Shown: one piece after another, positions 3,107 to 55,611 of the stretch
Position numbering within the stretch: the first letter of the stretch is position 1
How the letters are laid out: each line of letters begins with the position of its first letter
NCBI GenBank assembly: GCA_010093745.1
Contig: MU005994.1
Coordinates: forward strand, 1-64,000
Direction of reading: 5' to 3'
Length of the DNA stretch: 64,000 nt
Source: Piedraia hortae CBS 480.64
Lineage: Eukaryota
The notes under the pieces: model-generated
The model's input: the letters and a program-made list of their open reading frames with translations, nothing else
Database searches by the model: none
Told to the model about the DNA's origin: nothing
Translations under genes and position numbers: made by a program

Positions 3107-4288
3107 CTAACCAGGCCACCCCACCTCCCCCGCGTCCTCCAACAGCGTCCCTCTCTCAATCGGCGGATAAATCCACCGCGTATTAATCCGTCCCTTAACT
3201 TGTTTCCCCTCCTCCCCCTGCAGTTCCACCCTCCTATCCCAACCTTTCGCAAAAACCGCCCCAGCTGCTCCAAGATCCAAACAAGTCACATACCCCTCCG
3301 GCTTAAACTCCACCAAAGGTAGTTTGAGCACTTCCCGCGCAACATTCGCCCCACAAACCTTCCCCATCGGCAGCGCATGCTGGCACGACTGCATGCTCGT
3401 GTGCCCCTGCTCGCACGGCGCGGCTGCAGTATCGCCGCATGCATACACATCTTCCACTCCCTTGACACGGAGGTATGTGTCTACGACGAGCCGGCCGAGT
3501 TCATCGCGCGGTGAGTTTATTTGGCTGGTGAGTGGACTAGCATGCATGCCCACCGTCCAGATTACGGTCGCAGAGGGGATGAATTCGCCCGATGAGAGGG
3601 TTGCGCCTTCGGGGGAGAGGGATGCGAGGGAGGTATTGAGACGGGTTTCCACCCCCAGGGAGGTGAGGGCGGATTGGATATAGGGGCGCGGGCCAGCGCC
3701 TAATGAGGGAGAGAGGACTGCGCTTCGCTCTAGGAGGATTACGCGCGCGGGGTGCGGGGCGAGGAGGGAGGGGAGTTCGGTTGCGATTTCGAGACCGGTA
3801 AACCCCGCTCCGACGACGATGACTGTGTATTGGCCTGCGTGGGTGGCATGGGTGTGGGGGAGGTTGTGGAGGTGGGCGTTTAGGGATGCGGCTGAGGTGA
3901 GGGTGTCGATGTTGAAGAGGTGTTCTGAGCCAGGGAGGGTGGGGGGGTTGAGTTGACTTCCGCTCGCGAGGATGAGTTTGTCGTAGGAGAGGATTGATTG
4001 GGTTGAGTCTTGGTTTGTGAAGGTTATGGATTTGGTGGTTGGGGAGATGTGGGTTACGGTTGCGTGGATGCGGGAGGCGTTGATGGGGCCCAGGATGTGG
4101 TCGAGAGGGACGCGCATGTTTTCTGGGTGGTTTTCGTAGAGGCGGGGGCGGATGACGATGTCGTCGGTTGGGGCGATGAGGGTTACGGTGATGGGGTCGT
4201 GGGTTGGGTTGTCGGATTCGATCCGTTTGATGCCCGCCGCGGCCCAGACGCCGGCGAAACCGCCGCCGATGATGAGGACGTGAGGCAT
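3107..4288 (-). CDS. FAD/NAD(P)-dependent oxidoreductase, NDH-2 / pyridine nucleotide-disulfide oxidoreductase family (393 aa, intronless, bacterial-type)
   Basis: Two Rossmann motifs (VLIIGGGFAG, VIVVGAGFTGLEIATE), YDKLILASGS, VYACGD, and C-terminal YVTCLDLG...INTRWIYPP. Start taken at MPHVLIIGG (ATG 4288). Confidence 0.9.
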   Translation of the reverse strand: MPHVLIIGGGFAGVWAAAGIKRIESDNPTHDPITVTLIAPTDDIVIRPRLYENHPENMRVPLDHILGPINASRIHATVTHISPTTKSITFTNQDSTQSILSYDKLILASGSQLNPPTLPGSEHLFNIDTLTSAASLNAHLHNLPHTHATHAGQYTVIVVGAGFTGLEIATELPSLLAPHPARVILLERSAVLSPSLGAGPRPYIQSALTSLGVETRLNTSLASLSPEGATLSSGEFIPSATVIWTVGMHASPLTSQINSPRDELGRLVVDTYLRVKGVEDVYACGDTAAAPCEQGHTSMQSCQHALPMGKVCGANVAREVLKLPLVEFKPEGYVTCLDLGAAGAVFAKGWDRRVELQGEEGKQVKGRINTRWIYPPIERGTLLEDAGEVGWPG

Positions 4289-6459: not shown

Positions 6460-6504
6460 GCTGCCAGTGGCATGTAGTGGCAGTGCCACAAATGTCACAA
6501 TGGA

Positions 6505-6526
6505 TGACGTCATCACAATGACGTCA
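6505..6526. promoter_or_regulatory. Two perfect CRE/ATF palindromes (TGACGTCA) in the ~180-bp divergent promoter of STB6-like / RMD5
   Basis: TGACGTCA at 6505-6512 and 6519-6526, between head-to-head ATGs at 6459 and 6642. Confidence 0.45.
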
Positions 6527-6641
6527 TACCTTGATGGCAGCCTCGGTGGCTTATGTAAGCGTCCAGCACCACCGCAGGAAAGAGTGACTCTCGGCGAATA
6601 GGAGGGTTTAAACCCCGTAGGTTCACGTAACACAGTTAGCA

Positions 6642-12581: not shown

Positions 12582-13619
12582 TCAAGCGAATCGGTCGTTT
12601 CGTGAGGTTTTCGCTTTTAGGTCCAGCAGGGTTTCGTTATATCTCCCCTCCCTCTTCGCGCGTTTGAGCGTGCGTATCTCCTCTTCCGTGAGAGCCCGCC
12701 CGGCATCGTTCTCCAATGAGAGCTTCGAAATGGGTGCTTTTCCCTCTTGGGGTTTGGATGTGGTTTGTTTGGTGGGGAGGAAACGCGTTTGCATTTTTAT
12801 TTTCAGAACCGTGAGGGGAGTGTTGTTGATGATTGGGGTCCCAAGCGGGTTGTTGAGAGAGAAGGAATTCCCTCTTGGGGTGTGGGAGGGACTAATGTCC
12901 TTGGAGGGGCACCCTTTCAGGAAGGATTCTCCCTTCGCTGAAGGGTCCTCTGAGGTGATTTTCCCGGTGGAGGACCTCTCCTCCCTACTCCCTCCCCCCT
13001 CCCTACCGTCTTCCCTCTCCTTAACGCTTCCTTCCACATTGAAAATCTCTCTCATCGAAACCGCCTCCCCCTCCGCCCTCAAGCCCCCAGGCGTAAGAGA
13101 AAGATACTTCCCCAAATGCGACTTAAAACTGAATCCACCTCCGGGGAGGCGTGTTGAGATCCATATTTGGGTTGTGGACCAGGGTTCTGTTTCCATTGAT
13201 GGTAAGGGGGAGAGGTACGTTTCTCCTAGGAGGTCGCTGTTTAGAGTGAATAGAGTCTGGGCGGTGAATGGGCTGGTTGATGTAGGATTCGCAGATGAGG
13301 ATTCTTCGGGTAGGGAGGGTGCCGTTTGAGGGTCATGAGTGGGGGGTTCGCTACGCTCGCTGTGCCCATTGCGCTTCATTGCCTCGCTGGGTTTCCCATG
13401 CTCACCGCCGCTGACTTCGTTTCGCTCGTCCCGACTCTCATTATCAACGCAAAAAACAAGCATAACAGGCCCTCTGATTTGTTCGACATTCGTTACGGTA
13501 ATCCAGCCCTCTTCTTCTTCCGGGACGGCATCCTCCGGAGGCGGCGGGATATCGTGCACGCGTTTACGCTTCTTGGCTGGCTTAGGGGCGGAGTTTTTGA
13601 AGGTAAGTGGTTTTACCAT
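12582..13619 (-). CDS. FRG1-like protein
   Basis: MVKPLTFK N-terminus with basic NLS, FSFKSHLGKYLS fascin-like motif, IKMQTRF, and C-terminal LKRAKREGRYNETLLDLK...DRFA. Confidence 0.8.
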   Translation of the reverse strand: MVKPLTFKNSAPKPAKKRKRVHDIPPPPEDAVPEEEEGWITVTNVEQIRGPVMLVFCVDNESRDERNEVSGGEHGKPSEAMKRNGHSERSEPPTHDPQTAPSLPEESSSANPTSTSPFTAQTLFTLNSDLLGETYLSPLPSMETEPWSTTQIWISTRLPGGGFSFKSHLGKYLSLTPGGLRAEGEAVSMREIFNVEGSVKEREDGREGGGSREERSSTGKITSEDPSAKGESFLKGCPSKDISPSHTPRGNSFSLNNPLGTPIINNTPLTVLKIKMQTRFLPTKQTTSKPQEGKAPISKLSLENDAGRALTEEEIRTLKRAKREGRYNETLLDLKAKTSRNDRFA

Positions 13620-22438: not shown

Positions 22439-23810
22439 TGTAAGTGATTCGTGCCTCGTCCCAGGGAAAACTTCCTCCTATGGAGGTAAAAACTCTGAGA
22501 AGCATCGACCTATATCTAAGCTCGCAGATGCGCCCTGGCTGTATACTATATGAGAGTCTTTACCGTCTCACACACTCCCCCAGCCAGATGCTGAATGGCT
22601 CGTTAGTAGAAAATTGGTATAGGACTTACCAAGAACAGGGTCGATGGTCTCGAAGCTCATTTGGCGTTTCTTGAGTGCTTGAGCTTCTGCCTTATGAATC
22701 CTTTTGTTATTCTTGTGTCTCGATTGGTAAGATGTTATTGGCATAGGCTTGTACGCACAATCGGTGCGTCTTGAAGAAGCTCTTCAGGTAGACTTGTGAT
22801 ACCGTAGAATCTTGGACTTCTTGATGTGCGGTCTTGTAAGATGACTGTGCTGTTTGTTGGAAAACAGTTGTTGCGCAGCGTAATCGTTCTGGAGATTGAG
22901 TTTTTACAAAGTTGTATTTTCTGATGTTCAGCAGTGAGCTTATATACAAGTAGCTTCTTTATTCAGACAGTCTCAAATATCACTCCATTGCCCCACCGTC
23001 CTCTTTATTATGCTCTTTGAATATTTTGCTATACAGGATTTTTCTTTGTAGAATCTTTGTTATCAGGCCGAAATATGGCACCGAAACTTCTCAGCAACAG
23101 CATGTAGAGGAGCCAGTTGTATTGGCTCCTAAGGCGATCGTACGATGAGCGCGACTGCAGTGTGGATGGATTGATCTGCTTGGTGCCTTGTTTCTTGGGA
23201 ACTGCCGAACGCTGGAACGGACGTTTCGAGTGGCTTGTCTGGACGTTAACGGCATGCATCGTGATGCGGCCAAGTCTAGGATTGTACACAGGAGACTGTC
23301 GATGTGGGCGGCAATGAAGACGCATAGATTGTGCAATCTTGTCGCGGACGAAGGCTACAAATGCAGAGTATTCCGTCAGAGTCCCCTACGCCAGTACGTC
23401 CGTAGATATATTTGGCTTGAGGTAGTCTTCCACACCGCTTTGGGATGAGTCTGCTGACTTGGGGGTTCGATCGCAGCTGGCATCAGCAAGGAGGCGTGAA
23501 ACTTGTTGTCTATCAGAGCCTTGACGATCCGTAAGGACTTTGAGAATTGGCTCAAGACTGGGCAACTCTGGTCGTCATTCGTTCAGTGCTTGAATGATCG
23601 CGTGGAGTTTTTAGTCGAACACTGGGTAGTTGCATTCGGGAGGGTCTCGTGTTTTCGACAAAGTGCAGGATGTACCAGTACGCTTTGCCATCCCAGGTTT
23701 TGGGGCCTGCAATTGTTCCTCCCAGTCGTCGATGGAACGTTGCAACTGGGATAGTGCCTTGAGCCATTCGTTCTAGCACCCTGTTTGAAAAATTATTGGA
23801 TCGGCCGCCA
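22439..23810 (-). mobile_element. Ty1/copia remnant: 3' LTR (22439-22572), polypurine tract (22573-22582) and integrase fragments
   Basis: Minus strand has TGGGGGAGTG followed by TGTGAGAC...CACTTACA. Upstream degenerate integrase motifs are HRRLGGTIAGPKTWDGKAYWYILHFVENTR and HNLCVF (compare HxDLxGP..GxRY.L.FVDDxTR and LRVFG). Confidence 0.65.
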
Positions 23811-23825
23811 GAACTTCTGCATTAG

Positions 23826-24155
23826 GCTTTGAACAATTGCAGGCGAATTGTAGCGATAGTACTCTCGTGGATGGGAGTGCGTAGCGACCCGAACTAGGAG
23901 AACGTAGCGATAGACAGTGTCGATATGACAGTGTGAATGACTATATGTGTCTGTGAGGGGACATCAGGGTAAATATTCTGTACCGGTGGGCCGGTGACGT
24001 TACGTCGTACACTAGCAGTGCGCATTTGCCATGTCACATATGACATGACCCCGAGGGAAAACCTCTGTGAGGGAAAAACCTAGGGTGCAGCTGGTAGTGT
24101 AGGAGGTATCGCTGACTTGCTATGCAAGTGCGCTAGCGGCGATGCTTGAAACCAG
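23826..24155 (-). mobile_element. Near-complete LTR copy (family of 62175-62583)
   Basis: The reverse complement of 23849-24150 aligns closely with 62181-62541 (tgcatagcaagtcagcga..cctacactaccagctgcaccctaggtttttccctcacagaggttttccctc..caccggcccaccggt). Confidence 0.75.
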
Positions 24156-44793: not shown

Positions 44794-44901
44794 TGCCTGG
44801 ACTGAGAATCGAACTCAGATCTTGGGATGGCCCGAACTTTAGAGTTCGATCACACCCGGGGTTGTATGAGACCCACGTTCTAACCATTAAACTATCCGGG
44901 C
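44794..44901 (-). tRNA. tRNA-Met (CAT), elongator type, with 36-nt intron (44829-44864)
   Basis: GCCCGGA acceptor, D-arm GTTT-AATGGTTA-GAAC, anticodon arm TGGGT-CTCATA^A-TCCCA (U31:U39, typical of elongator Met), T-arm CTGAG-TTCGATT-CTCAG, then a T9 Pol III terminator. Confidence 0.92.
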
Positions 44902-45375
44902 TTGTTATGCTTGACAAGGGAGAAAAGAAAATATATTCTACAGGTAGTCTACTTGCGCAAAGACAGATTTCGGGGGGTCCTCCCGATGGGCCGATTTACA
45001 ACGTGCTTGCACTTCTTTACTGCGTGCATTTACTTTAAATATATCGCGTTGCGATGCCTGCTTCGTGTATCCTGTTAGAGATAATGGATGCTCAGTTGTT
45101 TACATGGGCGACGAGGATCAGGTTCGCATCTCAACGACAGGGTGAAGGAAACATCCTATGCCAACGAATGTAATTTTTCCAAGAACCGGCTGAACCATGT
45201 GCTATGCACAGTGGCTCAGCCAAGAGATAAAGAAGACGGGATCTAACTAATCAAGAACCAAATTGACAGCATTTTCTTGAAATCCATTTTATGATGCGAT
45301 CCCTTCTTCTTTATGGGTCTGTGATTGTTAGTTTCTGTTATGGCGTTTGGTTGGATGTTCACCTCTTTCTAGAGA

Positions 45376-47322
45376 CTAAGGCATCTGAGGCGGAGGGTAG
45401 TCGTCGCGATGAAGCATTCCGCTGTTCGAGCGAGGATATCTATGTCCGGCTTCTTCGGGTGAGTGCGCATATGCATCGTGTAACTGGTACGGAGGTCTTA
45501 TGGGAGGATGATCCATGGGAGGACGTGGGTGATGGCCCGTTGCGGGGTGCGGAGGTGGTCCCATTGGTCCCATTGGAGCGCGAGGATGACGGTCCATTGG
45601 ACGGTGCGGAAGAAGTCCTCCTGAAGGATGAGGATGATTTCCCATGGAGAGATGCGGAGGGCGATCCATGCCACGGCGATCCATAGGATGGCGATCATTA
45701 GGATGGCGATCGCTAGGACGTGGACGTCCCATCGGATGCCCATGGCTATTGGGATGTCCAGGTCCCATAGAGCGTCCATGGCCACTAGGATGTCCATGTC
45801 CCATAGGATGGCCGTGTCCTAGAGGACGTCCTACAGCAGGCCCCATTGGACGATATCCCGTTGGGCCCGAAGGAGGTCCAGGTGTGAGTGCATCGATGTC
45901 AAATGCCATTGCAATGTTTCGTTGCTGGATAGCCGTGTCTTCCTCATGGGCAGAATCATCAGGCCTGGGCACCTCGTCCTCTTGAGGAGGGAATATATCT
46001 TCGCCGAGGCCAACTTGAAGTCCTTTGTTTTGGGCGACCGTGGAGCCGGCTATGACCGAGAGCAGGGCCTTGAGCGAGGCCCGAGAGACGCATTCCTTGG
46101 GGGATGAGATGACAAGGAAGAAACCACATTTCTTGGAGTTTCCATTTACAGTGGCATCATTCTTCTCAGCTTCGCCATCCTCGTCGTGCTTCTGCTCAAC
46201 AGGCTTGGCGATGCGACCAAGGGTCGCATTGGCAATGGTTTGGATGGTGCAGACAGTTCTGCGGAACGGAGCCACAAGGTCGGCCTTGAAGATGTCATCA
46301 TTTTCTATTTTCTCTGAAGGCGGGAGCGTGACGATGACGCCGACGAGGTCTTCGTTCTTGTTGATTCTACTAGCGGACAAATTCGCGCATTCTGTCGTCT
46401 GTCCAGACTGCTGTCCCGACTGTTGCTGCGGCTGCTGCACCGGATGCTCTTCCGACTGCTGTCCCGATTGCTGCTCTGGCTGCTGTTGCGGCTGTTGCGG
46501 CTGTTGCGGCTGTTGCTGTATCGACTGCTGCTGCTGCTGTGGCTGCGGCTCCGCCTTTTTCTCCAGAGGTTCCTCCTCTTCGTCCTGGAAGTAAACTTCC
46601 AATGAACACTTGAGTCTTCCCATCAGACCCAAAAGGTCCATCTTCATGCTGTTCACCTTGTCCATGAACTTGTTTGAGGTGCGAATGATGATCCTTGACG
46701 GCTGCTGCGTCAAAGGTGAGGAAAGGAGGCTTTCCAGAGTCGCCAGCAGCGACCTATTATCCCACCTCTGCTCGTCCTTGTCGAAGGCAAGACAGATCAA
46801 CAGCGTGCCTGGACCCTCACAGGATTTAGGACATTTCTCGATCGTTTTCTGGACGCGTTTGGCGGCCTCGCCGTTGCGGTAGTTCATGAACGAAGGACGG
46901 GTCATGGCGGGCATGGCGGGGGTCTTGGGCGCCCTAAAGGAGAGTGGCGATGTGGGAGTAGCCGGGCTGGACACGCCCGACGAGGAGGTGGATCTAGAGG
47001 TGTAAAGCATCGGAAGCGGAACATTCGTCTCGAAAGCAGCAGCAACAGCAGCAGCAGCATTAGCGAAGCCATCCAGATCATGGTCGTCGTCGGTCATGGG
47101 ACGTCCGCCCTGATGAGAGTGCTCTCCTACGGAGCCATTCTCAACAGAACGAGTCTCGTCAACAGCGAAGGACTCACCGTGCGACATGTCATACAGGGCT
47201 GTGATATCACGAGGCGGGCCGTCAGCGAAGACTTCGTCAGAAGCCTTGCCATCAGTATTGATGGGCACTTCGTACAGAGTATTGGAGTCCCGTGAGTAGA
47301 CGCTGTTTGCGCGAGAATCCAT
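45376..47322 (-). CDS. Hypothetical protein with poly-Q tract and His/Pro/Met-rich C-terminal repeats
   Basis: 648-codon open frame with natural composition; QQQPQQ tract and repeated GHPMG/RHPMD-like units. No family recognised. Confidence 0.7.
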   Translation of the reverse strand: MDSRANSVYSRDSNTLYEVPINTDGKASDEVFADGPPRDITALYDMSHGESFAVDETRSVENGSVGEHSHQGGRPMTDDDHDLDGFANAAAAVAAAFETNVPLPMLYTSRSTSSSGVSSPATPTSPLSFRAPKTPAMPAMTRPSFMNYRNGEAAKRVQKTIEKCPKSCEGPGTLLICLAFDKDEQRWDNRSLLATLESLLSSPLTQQPSRIIIRTSNKFMDKVNSMKMDLLGLMGRLKCSLEVYFQDEEEEPLEKKAEPQPQQQQQSIQQQPQQPQQPQQQPEQQSGQQSEEHPVQQPQQQSGQQSGQTTECANLSASRINKNEDLVGVIVTLPPSEKIENDDIFKADLVAPFRRTVCTIQTIANATLGRIAKPVEQKHDEDGEAEKNDATVNGNSKKCGFFLVISSPKECVSRASLKALLSVIAGSTVAQNKGLQVGLGEDIFPPQEDEVPRPDDSAHEEDTAIQQRNIAMAFDIDALTPGPPSGPTGYRPMGPAVGRPLGHGHPMGHGHPSGHGRSMGPGHPNSHGHPMGRPRPSDRHPNDRHPMDRRGMDRPPHLSMGNHPHPSGGLLPHRPMDRHPRAPMGPMGPPPHPATGHHPRPPMDHPPIRPPYQLHDAYAHSPEEAGHRYPRSNSGMLHRDDYPPPQMP

Positions 47323-52297: not shown

Positions 52298-53593
52298 CTA
52301 CCTAGCAGTGAACCCCCCTATCCCCTCTTCATATCTACTCAAATCATACTCTCCCGGATACCTCTTCACCACATCCTTCAGCTCCTCCAGCTGCTGTATC
52401 TGCTCCTCCGTAAATTCCTCATATACATCTGTCATCATCTCCCTCACAGGCGGATGTCTTGCTTTCTCCGCCCTTCTATACGCCTCCAGAACCTCCTTCT
52501 TCGTCCCCTTTCGAAGCTCCTCTTCCTTTCCATCGTCCCACAACCCCTGCGCCTGCAGATACTTTCGCAACCTCGCAATCGGGTTGTCCCTTCTCCTCCA
52601 CTCCTCAACCTCAACCTTTGCCCTGTAGGCAAACGAATCGTCCGAAGTAGAATGATGAGCAACGCGGTAAGACATAGCCTCGATAAGCACCGGCTTCCCC
52701 GAGTCTTGCAGGGCGAGCTCCCTCGCCTTCAGCGTAGCTTCCCTCACAGCAAGAACATCATTCCCATCCACGCGAAGCGTCTCTACCCCGTACCCAACGC
52801 CTCGTGAAGCAATCCCATCGCCACGATACTGCTCCAGCGTAGGCGTCGAGATCGCAAACCCATTATTCCTGCAAATCCAAATAACCGGACAAGAGCGAGT
52901 AGCAGCAATGTTGAGTGCGGCATGGAAATCGCCCTCAGACGCAGCTCCCTCGCCAAAGTAACACGCCACTACCCTCTGATTCTGATCCGCATTCGCATTC
53001 GCCAACTTGACCGCGTACGCCGCGCCAGCTGCGTGAGGCAGCTGTGTCGCCAGCGGCGAGGAGATAGTGAATATATTCCCCTTCCTTGAGCCATAATGCA
53101 CAGGCATGTTCCTTCCCCGTCCACTATCCGCGGCCGTTGCGAATAGCTGTGCCATGAACTCATCTGCGGTGAAGCCGCGGTAGCGAAACACGCCTGGCTC
53201 GCGATACTGTGCGAAGATTGGATCAGCGGCGGAGAGTGCCGATGCGCTGCCCACGGCAATTCCCTCCTCGCCGGCACTAACCATGTAGAAAGATATGCGA
53301 CCTTGTCGTTGGGCGTCAAACATGAGCACGTCTAATACGGAAATAAAGACCATGTCTCTGTACATCCTCAGGAGCTCGTCGGTGGGGATGCCGATGGGGT
53401 GGGAAGGCATGCCATCTTGGTCGAGGACGCGATAGGTTGGCATCGAGGTGCTATCGTTTGGGTTGGCGAATCTCAGGGTATTCGTAAATGCGCTGTTGAC
53501 AGCGCCGGGGAAGTTGATGCCCGTGGCGCCAGGGCGTTGGGATATGCTGCTGGCCCATCTTCTGGAGATGCTGCGAAGAAGGTAGCGGGACAT
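52298..53593 (-). CDS. Branched-chain 2-oxoacid dehydrogenase E1 alpha subunit, mitochondrial
   Basis: QRQGRISFYM, GRNMPVHYGS, TPP-binding GEGAASEGDFHAALN...NN, YRVAHHSTSDDSFAYR; N-terminal presequence. Confidence 0.95.
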   Translation of the reverse strand: MSRYLLRSISRRWASSISQRPGATGINFPGAVNSAFTNTLRFANPNDSTSMPTYRVLDQDGMPSHPIGIPTDELLRMYRDMVFISVLDVLMFDAQRQGRISFYMVSAGEEGIAVGSASALSAADPIFAQYREPGVFRYRGFTADEFMAQLFATAADSGRGRNMPVHYGSRKGNIFTISSPLATQLPHAAGAAYAVKLANANADQNQRVVACYFGEGAASEGDFHAALNIAATRSCPVIWICRNNGFAISTPTLEQYRGDGIASRGVGYGVETLRVDGNDVLAVREATLKARELALQDSGKPVLIEAMSYRVAHHSTSDDSFAYRAKVEVEEWRRRDNPIARLRKYLQAQGLWDDGKEEELRKGTKKEVLEAYRRAEKARHPPVREMMTDVYEEFTEEQIQQLEELKDVVKRYPGEYDLSRYEEGIGGFTAR

Positions 53594-54025
53594 GGTCGCT
53601 GAGGTGGCATTGTGCGCGGGTCTTCAGGAGTTCTCAGTGGACTGTCGGCTAGTCGAGGTTTAGCGTGTGGGGAACGCAGGGGCGGACGTGACATTTAGTC
53701 ACCATTTGGTCTGATCAATAGCGTGCGCAGTTTCATCTCAAAGGGGCAGCGCAAAATGGTTTCAATACTCTAGATGGCAGACTTAGGCAAAGGTTCACAC
53801 GGTCTGACACTTCCATCATGCCATTCGTAGCAAAGTCAAATCAACTCCGACTTCCATGGCCCGCGTCATGCTATCTAGATGAGCCAGCACCTTTTGTGAT
53901 GGCCGATAGTGATGATGCGATGAAGGGATATGGAGCTCACTTAACTAGTTGAAGGATGTATCACGTGATGACCACAAACCGTGTTTAGCCACGTGACCTC
54001 GGCACGGCCCGCTCGGCACGGCCCG

Positions 54026-54805
54026 TAAAACCCTACAACGCTGAGACAGTTGCCCTTTTGGCCTTAACGCGTTGTTCTAGTCTTTTAGGCAATATAGAGT
54101 AGCGCATACCGTTTAGCTCCGTCATTTATGCCCTCCGGCCTCTCGGGCCTGACATCTCATGTATGTAGCATAGATGACTATACAATTATTCGCGTCTCAG
54201 TGTACTCACACTATCAGTTCGTCCCCATCAACTGGACTGGAGAAGGCGCCATGCTGACGCATATCCCGCCGCGTCATGATCGCTGGCTGGTTTAAGGCTC
54301 ACCAGGTAGCTCTCAAGCAACAATAGCATGGTGGAGGCGAGCCTTGTCCACTGTCATCCAATTTACAGCCCTCTTTCCTCTCTTAACTTTCCAGCCGCTT
54401 TCCTACAATTGCGCATACCTGATGTCGCCGTCTTTGATACAAGGTCAGATTATGGAAGGGCTGTGCTGCAAAGCTGAAGTCTTACAACTACATTAAGGTC
54501 GACGTCTGTGAGGACAGTCAGCAATAGTCCACAAGTAGCATGACAAGTGTAATGATTGTAAATCAGAAACAGCCTCTACGTTTTCGCAGCACGTGCCTTG
54601 GCATCTGAGTGAGCTGGGTTGCGATAGAGTTGTCATCATTTGAGGAGGAAAGGAGAGTGAAATTACCTGGTGGCATTTGACGGTCTTGCAACAAGGCACT
54701 CCAGGGCTAGACGGAGTGGTGCCCTTGATGCATTGTAGTACCTTTTGGCCATGATCAGTATTCCAGCACATCATTTACAGCGCATCGAGAGCCATCAATC
54801 GATGT
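54026..54805 (+). ncRNA. Candidate structured non-coding RNA; identity, strand and limits uncertain
   Basis: No credible ORF. Successive 8-11 bp helices: 54038-47/54194-203, 54069-79/54095-105, 54121-31/54168-78, 54247-55/54325-33, 54365-72/54457-64, plus a long hairpin 54687-54732. G-U pairs favour the + strand. Confidence 0.4.
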
Positions 54806-54988
54806 TAAGAAAGGTTCTTTTTCGGGGAGATTGTCTGACGTCGACAGCGCTTAGTCATCGAGTCGCATGCTGAGTCAGCGCGTCTTGGCACAGCACACCT
54901 CTTTTTGTTGCACCCGCCTCACGTACGCACCAACAGCGTAACTGTAAGTACTCCAAGGCGCATTATAGCCTTCGCTAACACTGCTCAG

Positions 54989-55611
54989 ATGGGTAAGATA
55001 CTAAAACGAGTCTCCGCAAGACAGCGCTGATTCTGTTTCTGAACAGGTCGCCTGCAGGAGTATCAAGTGATCGGGCGCCATTTGCCCACGGACGCGAACC
55101 CGACGCCGAAGTTGTATCGCATGCGCATCTTTGCGCCGAACGATGTCATCGCCAAGAGTCGCTTCTGGTACTTTCTCGCCAAGCTGAAGAAGGTCAAGAA
55201 GGCCAACGGCGAGATTGTCAGCCTCAACCAGGTCAGTGCTGCGGAAGCGATGAATCCACACAGCTGACCAAGCAGATCCATGAGAAGCACCCGCAAAAGG
55301 TCAAGAACTTTGGCATCTGGCTGCGCTACGACTCACGCTCGGGTACGCACAACATGTACAAGGAGTACCGCGAGATGACGCGCTGCGATGCCGTCGAGTC
55401 CATGTATCAGGACCTTGCGGCCCGTCACCGTGCTCGTTTCAGGTCCATCCACATCCTCAAGGTGGTCGAGGTTACGAAGACGGACGACATTCGCCGCCCG
55501 TACATCCGCCAGCTGCTCACCAAGGACCTCAAGTTTCCCTTGCCGCACCGCGCACAGCCGAAGAAGGGCCGCACCATCTTTGCGTCTCGCAGGCCCAACA
55601 CCTTCTACTAA
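54989..55611 (+). CDS. RPL20: 60S ribosomal protein eL20 (L20/L18a); exons 54989-54992, 55047-55231, 55276-55611, with a probable 5'-UTR intron 54944-54988
   Basis: Spliced [62 protein letters not shown]. Canonical GT/CTRAY/AG signals. Confidence 0.97.

Follow-up and report, generated by a model that had tools for sequence, protein, structure and literature searches.

Genes and features of the interval

Within the window, the 64-kb stretch of Piedraia hortae DNA analysed here (from an assembly of 16.9 Mb in 132 contigs), an interval of ~1.4 kb lies between the start codon of the BCKDH E1 alpha gene (minus strand, 53593) and that of RPL20 (plus strand, 54989). Both neighbours had been named in the original prediction, and both identities are supported by protein matches: the best solved relative of the left-hand protein is 2-oxoisovalerate dehydrogenase alpha (E 9e-129), and the exon at 55049-55231 on the other side matches the 60S protein L20, or eL20 (E 1.8e-30). 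As read from the sequence, RPL20 has an apparent intron abutting its ATG (54945-54988) and a first coding exon of 4 nt. The space between the two genes is as poor in open reading frames as had been described, the longest ATG-initiated frames in 53601-54990 comprising 55 aa on the plus strand and 93 aa on the minus strand.

Three components that have nothing to do with one another make up this interval, and its features are collected in Table 1. Scanning the whole 64-kb window with Rfam at gathering scores gave a tRNA at 44794-44901 as the sole match, corresponding to an intron-containing tRNA gene on the minus strand. A second snoRNA, besides the one described below, was sought with Rfam in 54235-54505, where we obtained just one weak, low-complexity lncRNA match.

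Table 1. Features of the BCKDH E1 alpha–RPL20 interval and its flanks, with positions counted from the first letter of the window
Feature	Position	Strand	Evidence or remark
BCKDH E1 alpha CDS, left neighbour	52298..53593	-	Pfam E1_dh, E 2.5e-88
Repeat B, 5′ piece, starts AGTTGAAGG	53947..53974	.	at least 6 other genomic matches
Repeat A, inside repeat B, 5′ end lost	53984..54154	.	at least 28 other genomic matches
Stable multibranch fold, repeat A paired with repeat B	54038..54203	+	z -3.78; rank 42/103
Repeat B, 3′ piece, ends ...CAACT	54155..54233	.	at least 11 other genomic matches
Single-copy stretch of unassigned origin	54235..54345	.	0 other genomic matches; fold z -0.57/-0.39
Decayed KAP123 exon (exon after the snoRNA intron)	54424..54509	-	gapped similarity on to ~54345
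Predicted 161-nt host intron	54506..54666	-	donor, branch site, acceptor
Acceptor CAG	ends 54506	-	
Branch site CTGAC	54521-54517	-	
Donor CAG/GTAATT	54666	-	
Putative box C/D snoRNA, 77 nt	54563..54639	-	boxes, guides, second genomic copy, 10 related loci
Box C AUGAUGA	54639-54633	-	
D′ guide	54620-54608	-	
D′ box CAGA	54607-54604	-	
Internal 4-bp stem	54603-54594	-	
C′ box	about 54591-54586	-	
D guide	54577-54567	-	
Box D CUGA	54566-54563	-	
Presumed non-coding exon upstream of the intron, with the promoter side of the host RNA	54667..54900	-	single-copy; putative role
Hairpin within 54667..54900	54687-54732		
TGACTCA site within 54667..54900	54877-54871	-	
RPL20 (eL20) gene from ATG	54989..55611	+	head-to-head with snoRNA unit

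Two nested repeat relics

No recognisable transposon had been seen in the interval, a statement that is wrong for ~290 nt (53947-54233), which consist of two dispersed repeat families, here called A and B. A search of the genomic DNA with the region returned 47 matches. Besides the locus itself, these comprise repeat A (28 copies), the 3′ piece (11) and the 5′ piece (six) of repeat B, and a single match to 54562-54640; as 40 of 111 candidates were scored, these copy counts are lower bounds. Repeat B measures ~119 bp when whole, and its two pieces are continuous in intact copies; repeat A has therefore inserted into repeat B, with the left junction lost afterwards. Whole copies of repeat A read TGTCAGG...CCTGACA, span 174-193 bp and are flanked by 5-bp target duplications, exact in eight and matching at four or more of five positions in 13 of the 22 copies examined out of at least 28. 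For repeat B, an exact 5-bp duplication accompanies four of the ten tallied copies (one interrupted copy was left out) and a match at four or more positions accompanies five, while the flanks of the window copy agree at three of the five positions. The window copy of repeat A is 80-91% identical to other copies. It includes a tandem 14-bp duplication (54000-54027) common to a subfamily of 191-193 bp, as opposed to one of 174-178 bp.

Target duplications, short inverted ends and dispersed copies are marks of solo LTRs, and we are all but certain that A and B are two nested solo-LTR-like relics. Like the solo LTRs of fungal LTR retrotransposons in general, they are short and dispersed, with 5-bp duplications, inverted termini and nesting; repeat A also shares the TG...CA ends, whereas repeat B ends in AG...CT, and for the latter a MITE-like origin is possible. 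Among the 13 integrase loci checked, no parent element of either family was found: repeat A lies near none of them, and repeat B near two, where it is solo or interrupted. We rejected repeat B as the LTR of a copia element, as this copia-type element (gag_2, protease-like, integrase; L087 3647-8757, G000:C32) sits inserted within a copy of B. At L036, a contig-end repeat is found inside another B copy, and insertions seem to land in repeat B frequently.

A third short repeat, ending in ...TTCACAACA, occupies positions 1-65 of the window and the starts of contigs C1, C2, C4-C9, C11-C13, C15, C18 and C20 (L014-L033). It stands in either orientation at these contig starts and also occurs near several integrase loci. 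Because this repeat caps contig starts, assembly breaks fall at an LTR-like family and not at telomeres.

Folding of the region

All motifs and helices named in the original prediction are found at their positions. The dense folding of ~0.75 kb that they had suggested is not borne out, as the 826-nt region folds at the level of its shuffles (plus strand, z -0.37, with 8 of 20 shuffles equally good; minus strand, z +1.40). When we slid a 200-nt frame along both strands, one of 32 frame-strand pairs fell below z -3 (53800-53999, minus), and this one is mostly outside the candidate region. Two of the named sub-structures are likewise at shuffle level (54240-54340, z -0.57; 54360-54470, z -0.83), and the hairpin at 54680-54740 scores z -1.00 on the plus and -2.18 on the minus strand.

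The truly stable block is 54036-54206, with z -3.78 on the plus strand (none of 200 shuffles equal) and -0.60 on the minus strand. Its boundaries were picked after the helices had been seen; with boundaries left free, it ranks 42nd among the 103 plus-strand local folds of the 64-kb window with z <= -3. Helices 54038/54194 and 54121/54168 each couple repeat A with repeat B, and on the plus strand only, the interaction of the two repeats reaches -14.9 kcal/mol, compared with a mean of -5.1 and a minimum of -11.8 in 242 other copy pairs, which were formed from 22 A and 11 B copies and hence are not independent.

Besides the snoRNA, could there be an RNA transcribed on the plus strand from the side of the BCKDH promoter, in which the nested repeats have become a structure under selection, a new LTR-derived non-coding RNA domain? 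The strand bias of the stable block, an interaction energy beyond all 242 other pairs and, by our own reading, six rare states in the two cross-repeat helices, none of which breaks a pair, would be in line with such a domain. Against this, the block is unexceptional in rank once its boundaries are freed, the compared pairs are interdependent, several of the helix states occur in other copies too, several are C-to-T or G-to-A differences such as fungal repeats commonly show, and no two-sided change was identified. We consider a selected structure very improbable and take the mutual pairing of the nested repeats to be incidental. The excess interaction energy speaks against this view and is not fully dismissed; we weigh it lightly because of the 22 × 11 design, because the locus was picked for its folded look, and because several of the helpful bases are present in other copies.

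Elsewhere, a local fold on the minus strand at 53785-53998, upstream of the BCKDH start, reaches z ~-4.3 (-3.2 in a fixed frame) and partly overlaps repeat B. The strongest local folds of the window, with z between -5 and -7, are at 6460-6542 (plus), 12847-13032, 45183-45319, 45671-45822 and 23690-24115; they far exceed the studied region and may represent inverted repeats or small RNAs.

A box C/D snoRNA on the minus strand

As a fallback, a snoRNA-like RNA had been proposed for the interval. This was the right kind of molecule in the wrong form: instead of a 0.75-kb plus-strand fold, the minus strand holds a box C/D guide of 77 nt. Scanning with Rfam by E-value returned two overlapping sub-threshold matches, to snR71 (RF00479; 21.8 bits, E 1.7, below the gathering score of 60 bits) and to SNORD95 (RF00189; 16.5 bits over model positions 39-64 only, below the gathering score of 55 bits), which turned out to be two halves of the same 77-nt RNA. 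Neither family gave a match at E <= 1 in ten relatives. The RNA would be expected to work like snR71, yet it is no formal member of the Rfam family.

Box C lies near the 5′ end and box D near the 3′ end, and the length falls within the range of 60-120 nt. Both the CAGA of box D′, which formed part of our search pattern, and the UGCUG of box C′, which did not, are invariant in nine aligned sequences; the internal stem is 97% paired, with no two-sided changes. The guides pair over 12 nt and 11 nt, within the 10-21 nt of rRNA antisense elements that end next to D or D′, with N. crassa 26S targets as given in supplement 4 of PMC2780460; the assembly yielded no rRNA of the fungus itself, and pairing was therefore judged on the N. 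crassa targets. Both guides, the snR71-type and the U95-type, sit in one RNA here. We also considered U5 as the target of the D guide, in analogy to N. crassa CD24, and rejected it for want of a register-correct pairing with the genome's own U5.

A home in KAP123 and a decayed duplicate

Where does this RNA come from? The genome DNA search, on which the copy number rests, revealed at least one second copy among the matches listed, 90% identical and located at G000:C74:28970-29048. The gene whose intron harbours this copy contains two long open frames and encodes an importin-beta protein, with Kap123 (importin-4) as its best solved relative (E 6e-94). Searching metagenomes with a pattern of both guides, we recovered ten loci in approximately six distinct groups, and in all ten the RNA occupies the intron that also hosts the C74 copy, interrupting an importin-beta gene at one and the same codon; conservation of the guides among these loci follows by construction, whereas the search imposed no such constraint on box C, box C′ or the place of the intron. 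Judged from these sequences, the ancestral home of the snoRNA is a KAP123 intron that has been conserved in related fungi. At one of the loci (L008, ~3356-3450), the importin exon differs in length by one base from that of L009/L010, shifting the frame, probably owing to an assembly error.

The window copy has retained a trace of the same host. Positions 54509-54424 match the exon following the snoRNA intron at 48 of 86 positions in an ungapped alignment, a score attained by none of 2000 shuffles; a profile built from eight exon pieces finds the remnant with E 0.0013 in a targeted search and as the best match of the 64-kb window at E 0.2. The remnant contains stops in all three frames. Upstream of the intron, likeness to KAP123 is not significant (57 of 1000 shuffles as good as the best match). 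With an exon remnant beside the intron, the event must have been a DNA-level duplication of part of KAP123 and not a retroposition of the snoRNA, and we have little doubt that the window RNA is a snoRNA homologue derived from this duplicate.

The predicted intron is 161 nt long, compared to 162 nt in KAP123, and a comparable intron context was seen at 14 of 18,200 random anchors. Its acceptor corresponds in the alignment to a formerly exonic AG, which in KAP123 lies 14 nt into the exon; the duplicate has thus kept a usable 3′ splice site in spite of losing the original one. The donor has no G at +5, and its distance to box C is 27 nt, as compared to 35 nt in the C74 copy and 41-49 nt in those relatives for which the right C box was picked. 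Taken together, intron signals and snoRNA homology suggest that the fungus is a filamentous ascomycete.

Between the two genomic copies of the snoRNA, none of 43 positions in boxes and guides differs, as opposed to eight of 34 elsewhere (Fisher p 9e-4) and to 38 of 86 in the adjacent exon remnant (p 6e-9). In the alignment, the two copies are nearest to each other (8 differences vs 10-28) and share two states that are absent from seven aligned relatives. Unchanged boxes and guides beside a decayed exon would thus speak for long purifying selection on the window copy. Alternatively, the copy could have fallen silent, as a pseudogene of the snoRNA within a defunct piece of KAP123, and owe its similarity to past selection or to gene conversion from the KAP123 copy. 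The short distance from donor to box C, the non-consensus +5 position and the existence of an intact KAP123 copy, which makes the window copy redundant, fit a silent locus. The absence of changes in boxes and guides next to an exon that has changed so heavily does not; moreover, the eight differences all avoid functional positions, unlike the outcome of recent conversion, and the intron flanks of the two copies are not alignable. We therefore hold silence to be unlikely and consider the window copy probably still active, as judged from this pattern of substitutions.

The telomerase reading

In one of the two original readings, the interval was a compact plus-strand telomerase RNA templating TTTTAGGG. 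The proposed template, TAAAACCCTA, is indeed present at 54026-54035. It is, however, a drifted variant within repeat A, which also contains the hairpin at 54069-54105, and it is absent from all 22 other copies examined, making it private to one of 23. Checked for the single-copy state of a telomerase RNA gene, the template region thus proved to be multicopy. In the available part of PMC3592445, telomerase RNAs of Pezizomycotina are represented by two examples, one 2049 nt and the other 2425 nt long; the template there has 9 nt, corresponding to 1.5 repeats, and the base triples involve invariant uridines. To judge from that part, the region shares with them just a short CCCTA-containing motif: its would-be template comprises 1.25 copies of a unit seen nowhere in tandem and lies within a dispersed repeat, and the available gap of 1.4 kb is too small for the published lengths of these filamentous-ascomycete RNAs.

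Telomeres were looked for in the assembly and not found. Neither (TTAGGG)3 nor tandem TTTAGGG nor tandem AAACCCTA occurs in the assembly, the two internal matches to (TTAGGG)2 are not more than in a reversed control, and none of the 20 contig starts read, out of 132, is telomeric. The Telomerase_Asco model (RF02462) gave no match at E <= 10 in 53500-55100, a scan that extends indirectly to the three-way junction with P6 and P6.1; this model was blank genome-wide too, which makes its sensitivity here doubtful, and the genome searches with Telomerase_Asco and with LSU rRNA, both blank, were run with a stricter first look. In favour of the telomerase reading, it may be said that this weak search found no telomerase RNA elsewhere in the genome, and that the assembly yielded no telomere repeat.

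A triple helix had further been suggested by a parallel match between a pyrimidine and a purine 10-mer. The match is real and rare, being found in two of 158 overlapping 826-nt windows, most likely both the present locus, but it gives no evident sign of three strands coming together. No antiparallel partner pairs perfectly with the purine tract, and those with one mismatch are limited to that very pyrimidine tract and another at 54899; the proposed triplex is C-rich, comes without a separate third strand and does not form a uridine-triple pseudoknot. Its purine half is the complement of the pyrimidine stretch that precedes box C in the intron. Of the two halves, one falls within the snoRNA intron and the other within the decayed exon or at its end, on the opposite strand. 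In addition, two of the long helices join two unrelated repeats, and the 3′ half of the region is accounted for by its minus-strand history. The interval is not a telomerase RNA gene, and we give the compact-RNA reading practically no credence. Nor can AACCCTA serve as a promoter element of the snoRNA, as had been proposed, because the motif belongs to a repeat that lies downstream of it.

Discussion

What, then, is the most plausible history of this locus? Taken as a whole, a mosaic of a KAP123-derived snoRNA duplicate and nested repeat relics is the explanation that we regard as likely. A piece of KAP123, comprising the snoRNA intron and at least the start of the next exon, was duplicated at the DNA level beside RPL20, as the homology shows. 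The coding piece then decayed, with the snoRNA boxes and guides left unchanged, presumably under long purifying selection. At present, a non-coding Pol II transcript may start at the RPL20 promoter region and head away from RPL20, the 161-nt intron may be spliced out of it and trimmed to the 77-nt RNA, and this RNA may bind the box C/D proteins. That the snoRNA is made by splicing from an RPL20-divergent transcript is a proposal we lean towards, on the strength of the predicted splice signals.

According to the standard box C/D rule, the base paired to the fifth nucleotide upstream of box D or D′ is methylated. Applied to the window RNA, this rule would place 2′-O-methylation on two adenosines of large-subunit rRNA, one corresponding to N. 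crassa 26S Am2904 (paired with the D′ guide) and the other to Am1845 (paired with the D guide). This target assignment follows from the standard mechanism in combination with the published N. crassa pairings. More tentatively, and with slightly less than even confidence, we suggest that the locus represents a non-coding snoRNA host of readable origin, in which a KAP123 duplicate came to stand head-to-head with RPL20 and shed its coding sequence along with the original 3′ splice site, an exonic AG was recruited for splicing, and a two-target guide, with snR71 and U95-type guides fused, is expressed from a ribosomal-protein promoter, tying guide output to ribosome synthesis.

The analysis removes one telomerase RNA candidate and opens no long-standing question. 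It contributes a snoRNA that had escaped annotation and stays below the Rfam cut-offs, along with a home for this RNA in a KAP123 intron of related fungi. The duplicate offers a natural example of how non-coding snoRNA host genes may arise from decayed copies of protein-coding hosts, and its decayed exon provides a built-in neutral yardstick beside the conserved RNA.

Compared with known systems, the RNA is best described, from its sequence features, as a putative intronic box C/D guide that resembles snR71 and carries a U95-type guide in addition, in a duplicated host whose origin can still be read. As far as the available parts of PMC2780460 go, its closest counterpart is Nc CD27, the N. crassa homologue of snR71/U29, which is likewise an intronic box C/D RNA with an AUGAUGA box C and a C′ box of the UGCUG type, and whose D′ guide and box D′, AACCCAGCUCACU-CAGA, directed at 26S Am2904, recur in the window RNA. 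In contrast to CD27, for which no D guide is listed there, the window RNA has a second guide at D, and its window copy is a duplicate outside the ancestral host gene. This second guide, the 11-nt AGAGGCUGUUU for 26S Am1845, is the same as in Nc CD28, the snoR33/U95 homologue; according to the same parts of PMC2780460, however, CD28 is an RNA of its own, with Am1859 as a further target, and carries this guide at D′, whereas here it is found at D of an snR71-type RNA. Guide moves and target switches between snoRNAs have been described for other fungal families, as can be seen from the accessible portion of PMC5824354. Neither a fused-guide RNA of this sort nor the present duplicate is described in the accessible portions of the literature, including PMC2780460, PMC5824354, PMC5644071 and PMC13736004, although the supplements of PMC5824354 may list the family in Dothideomycetes. 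Finally, non-coding hosts are known from the UHG/gas5-like clusters I-V of N. crassa (PMC2780460) and from vertebrate SNHG genes (PMC13736004), which, in the parts of these sources available to us, have non-coding exons round a snoRNA intron, as proposed here. Unlike those hosts, the present one contains a single snoRNA, its exon is a recognisable, decayed piece of the ancestral protein-coding host, and its transcript is a predicted one.
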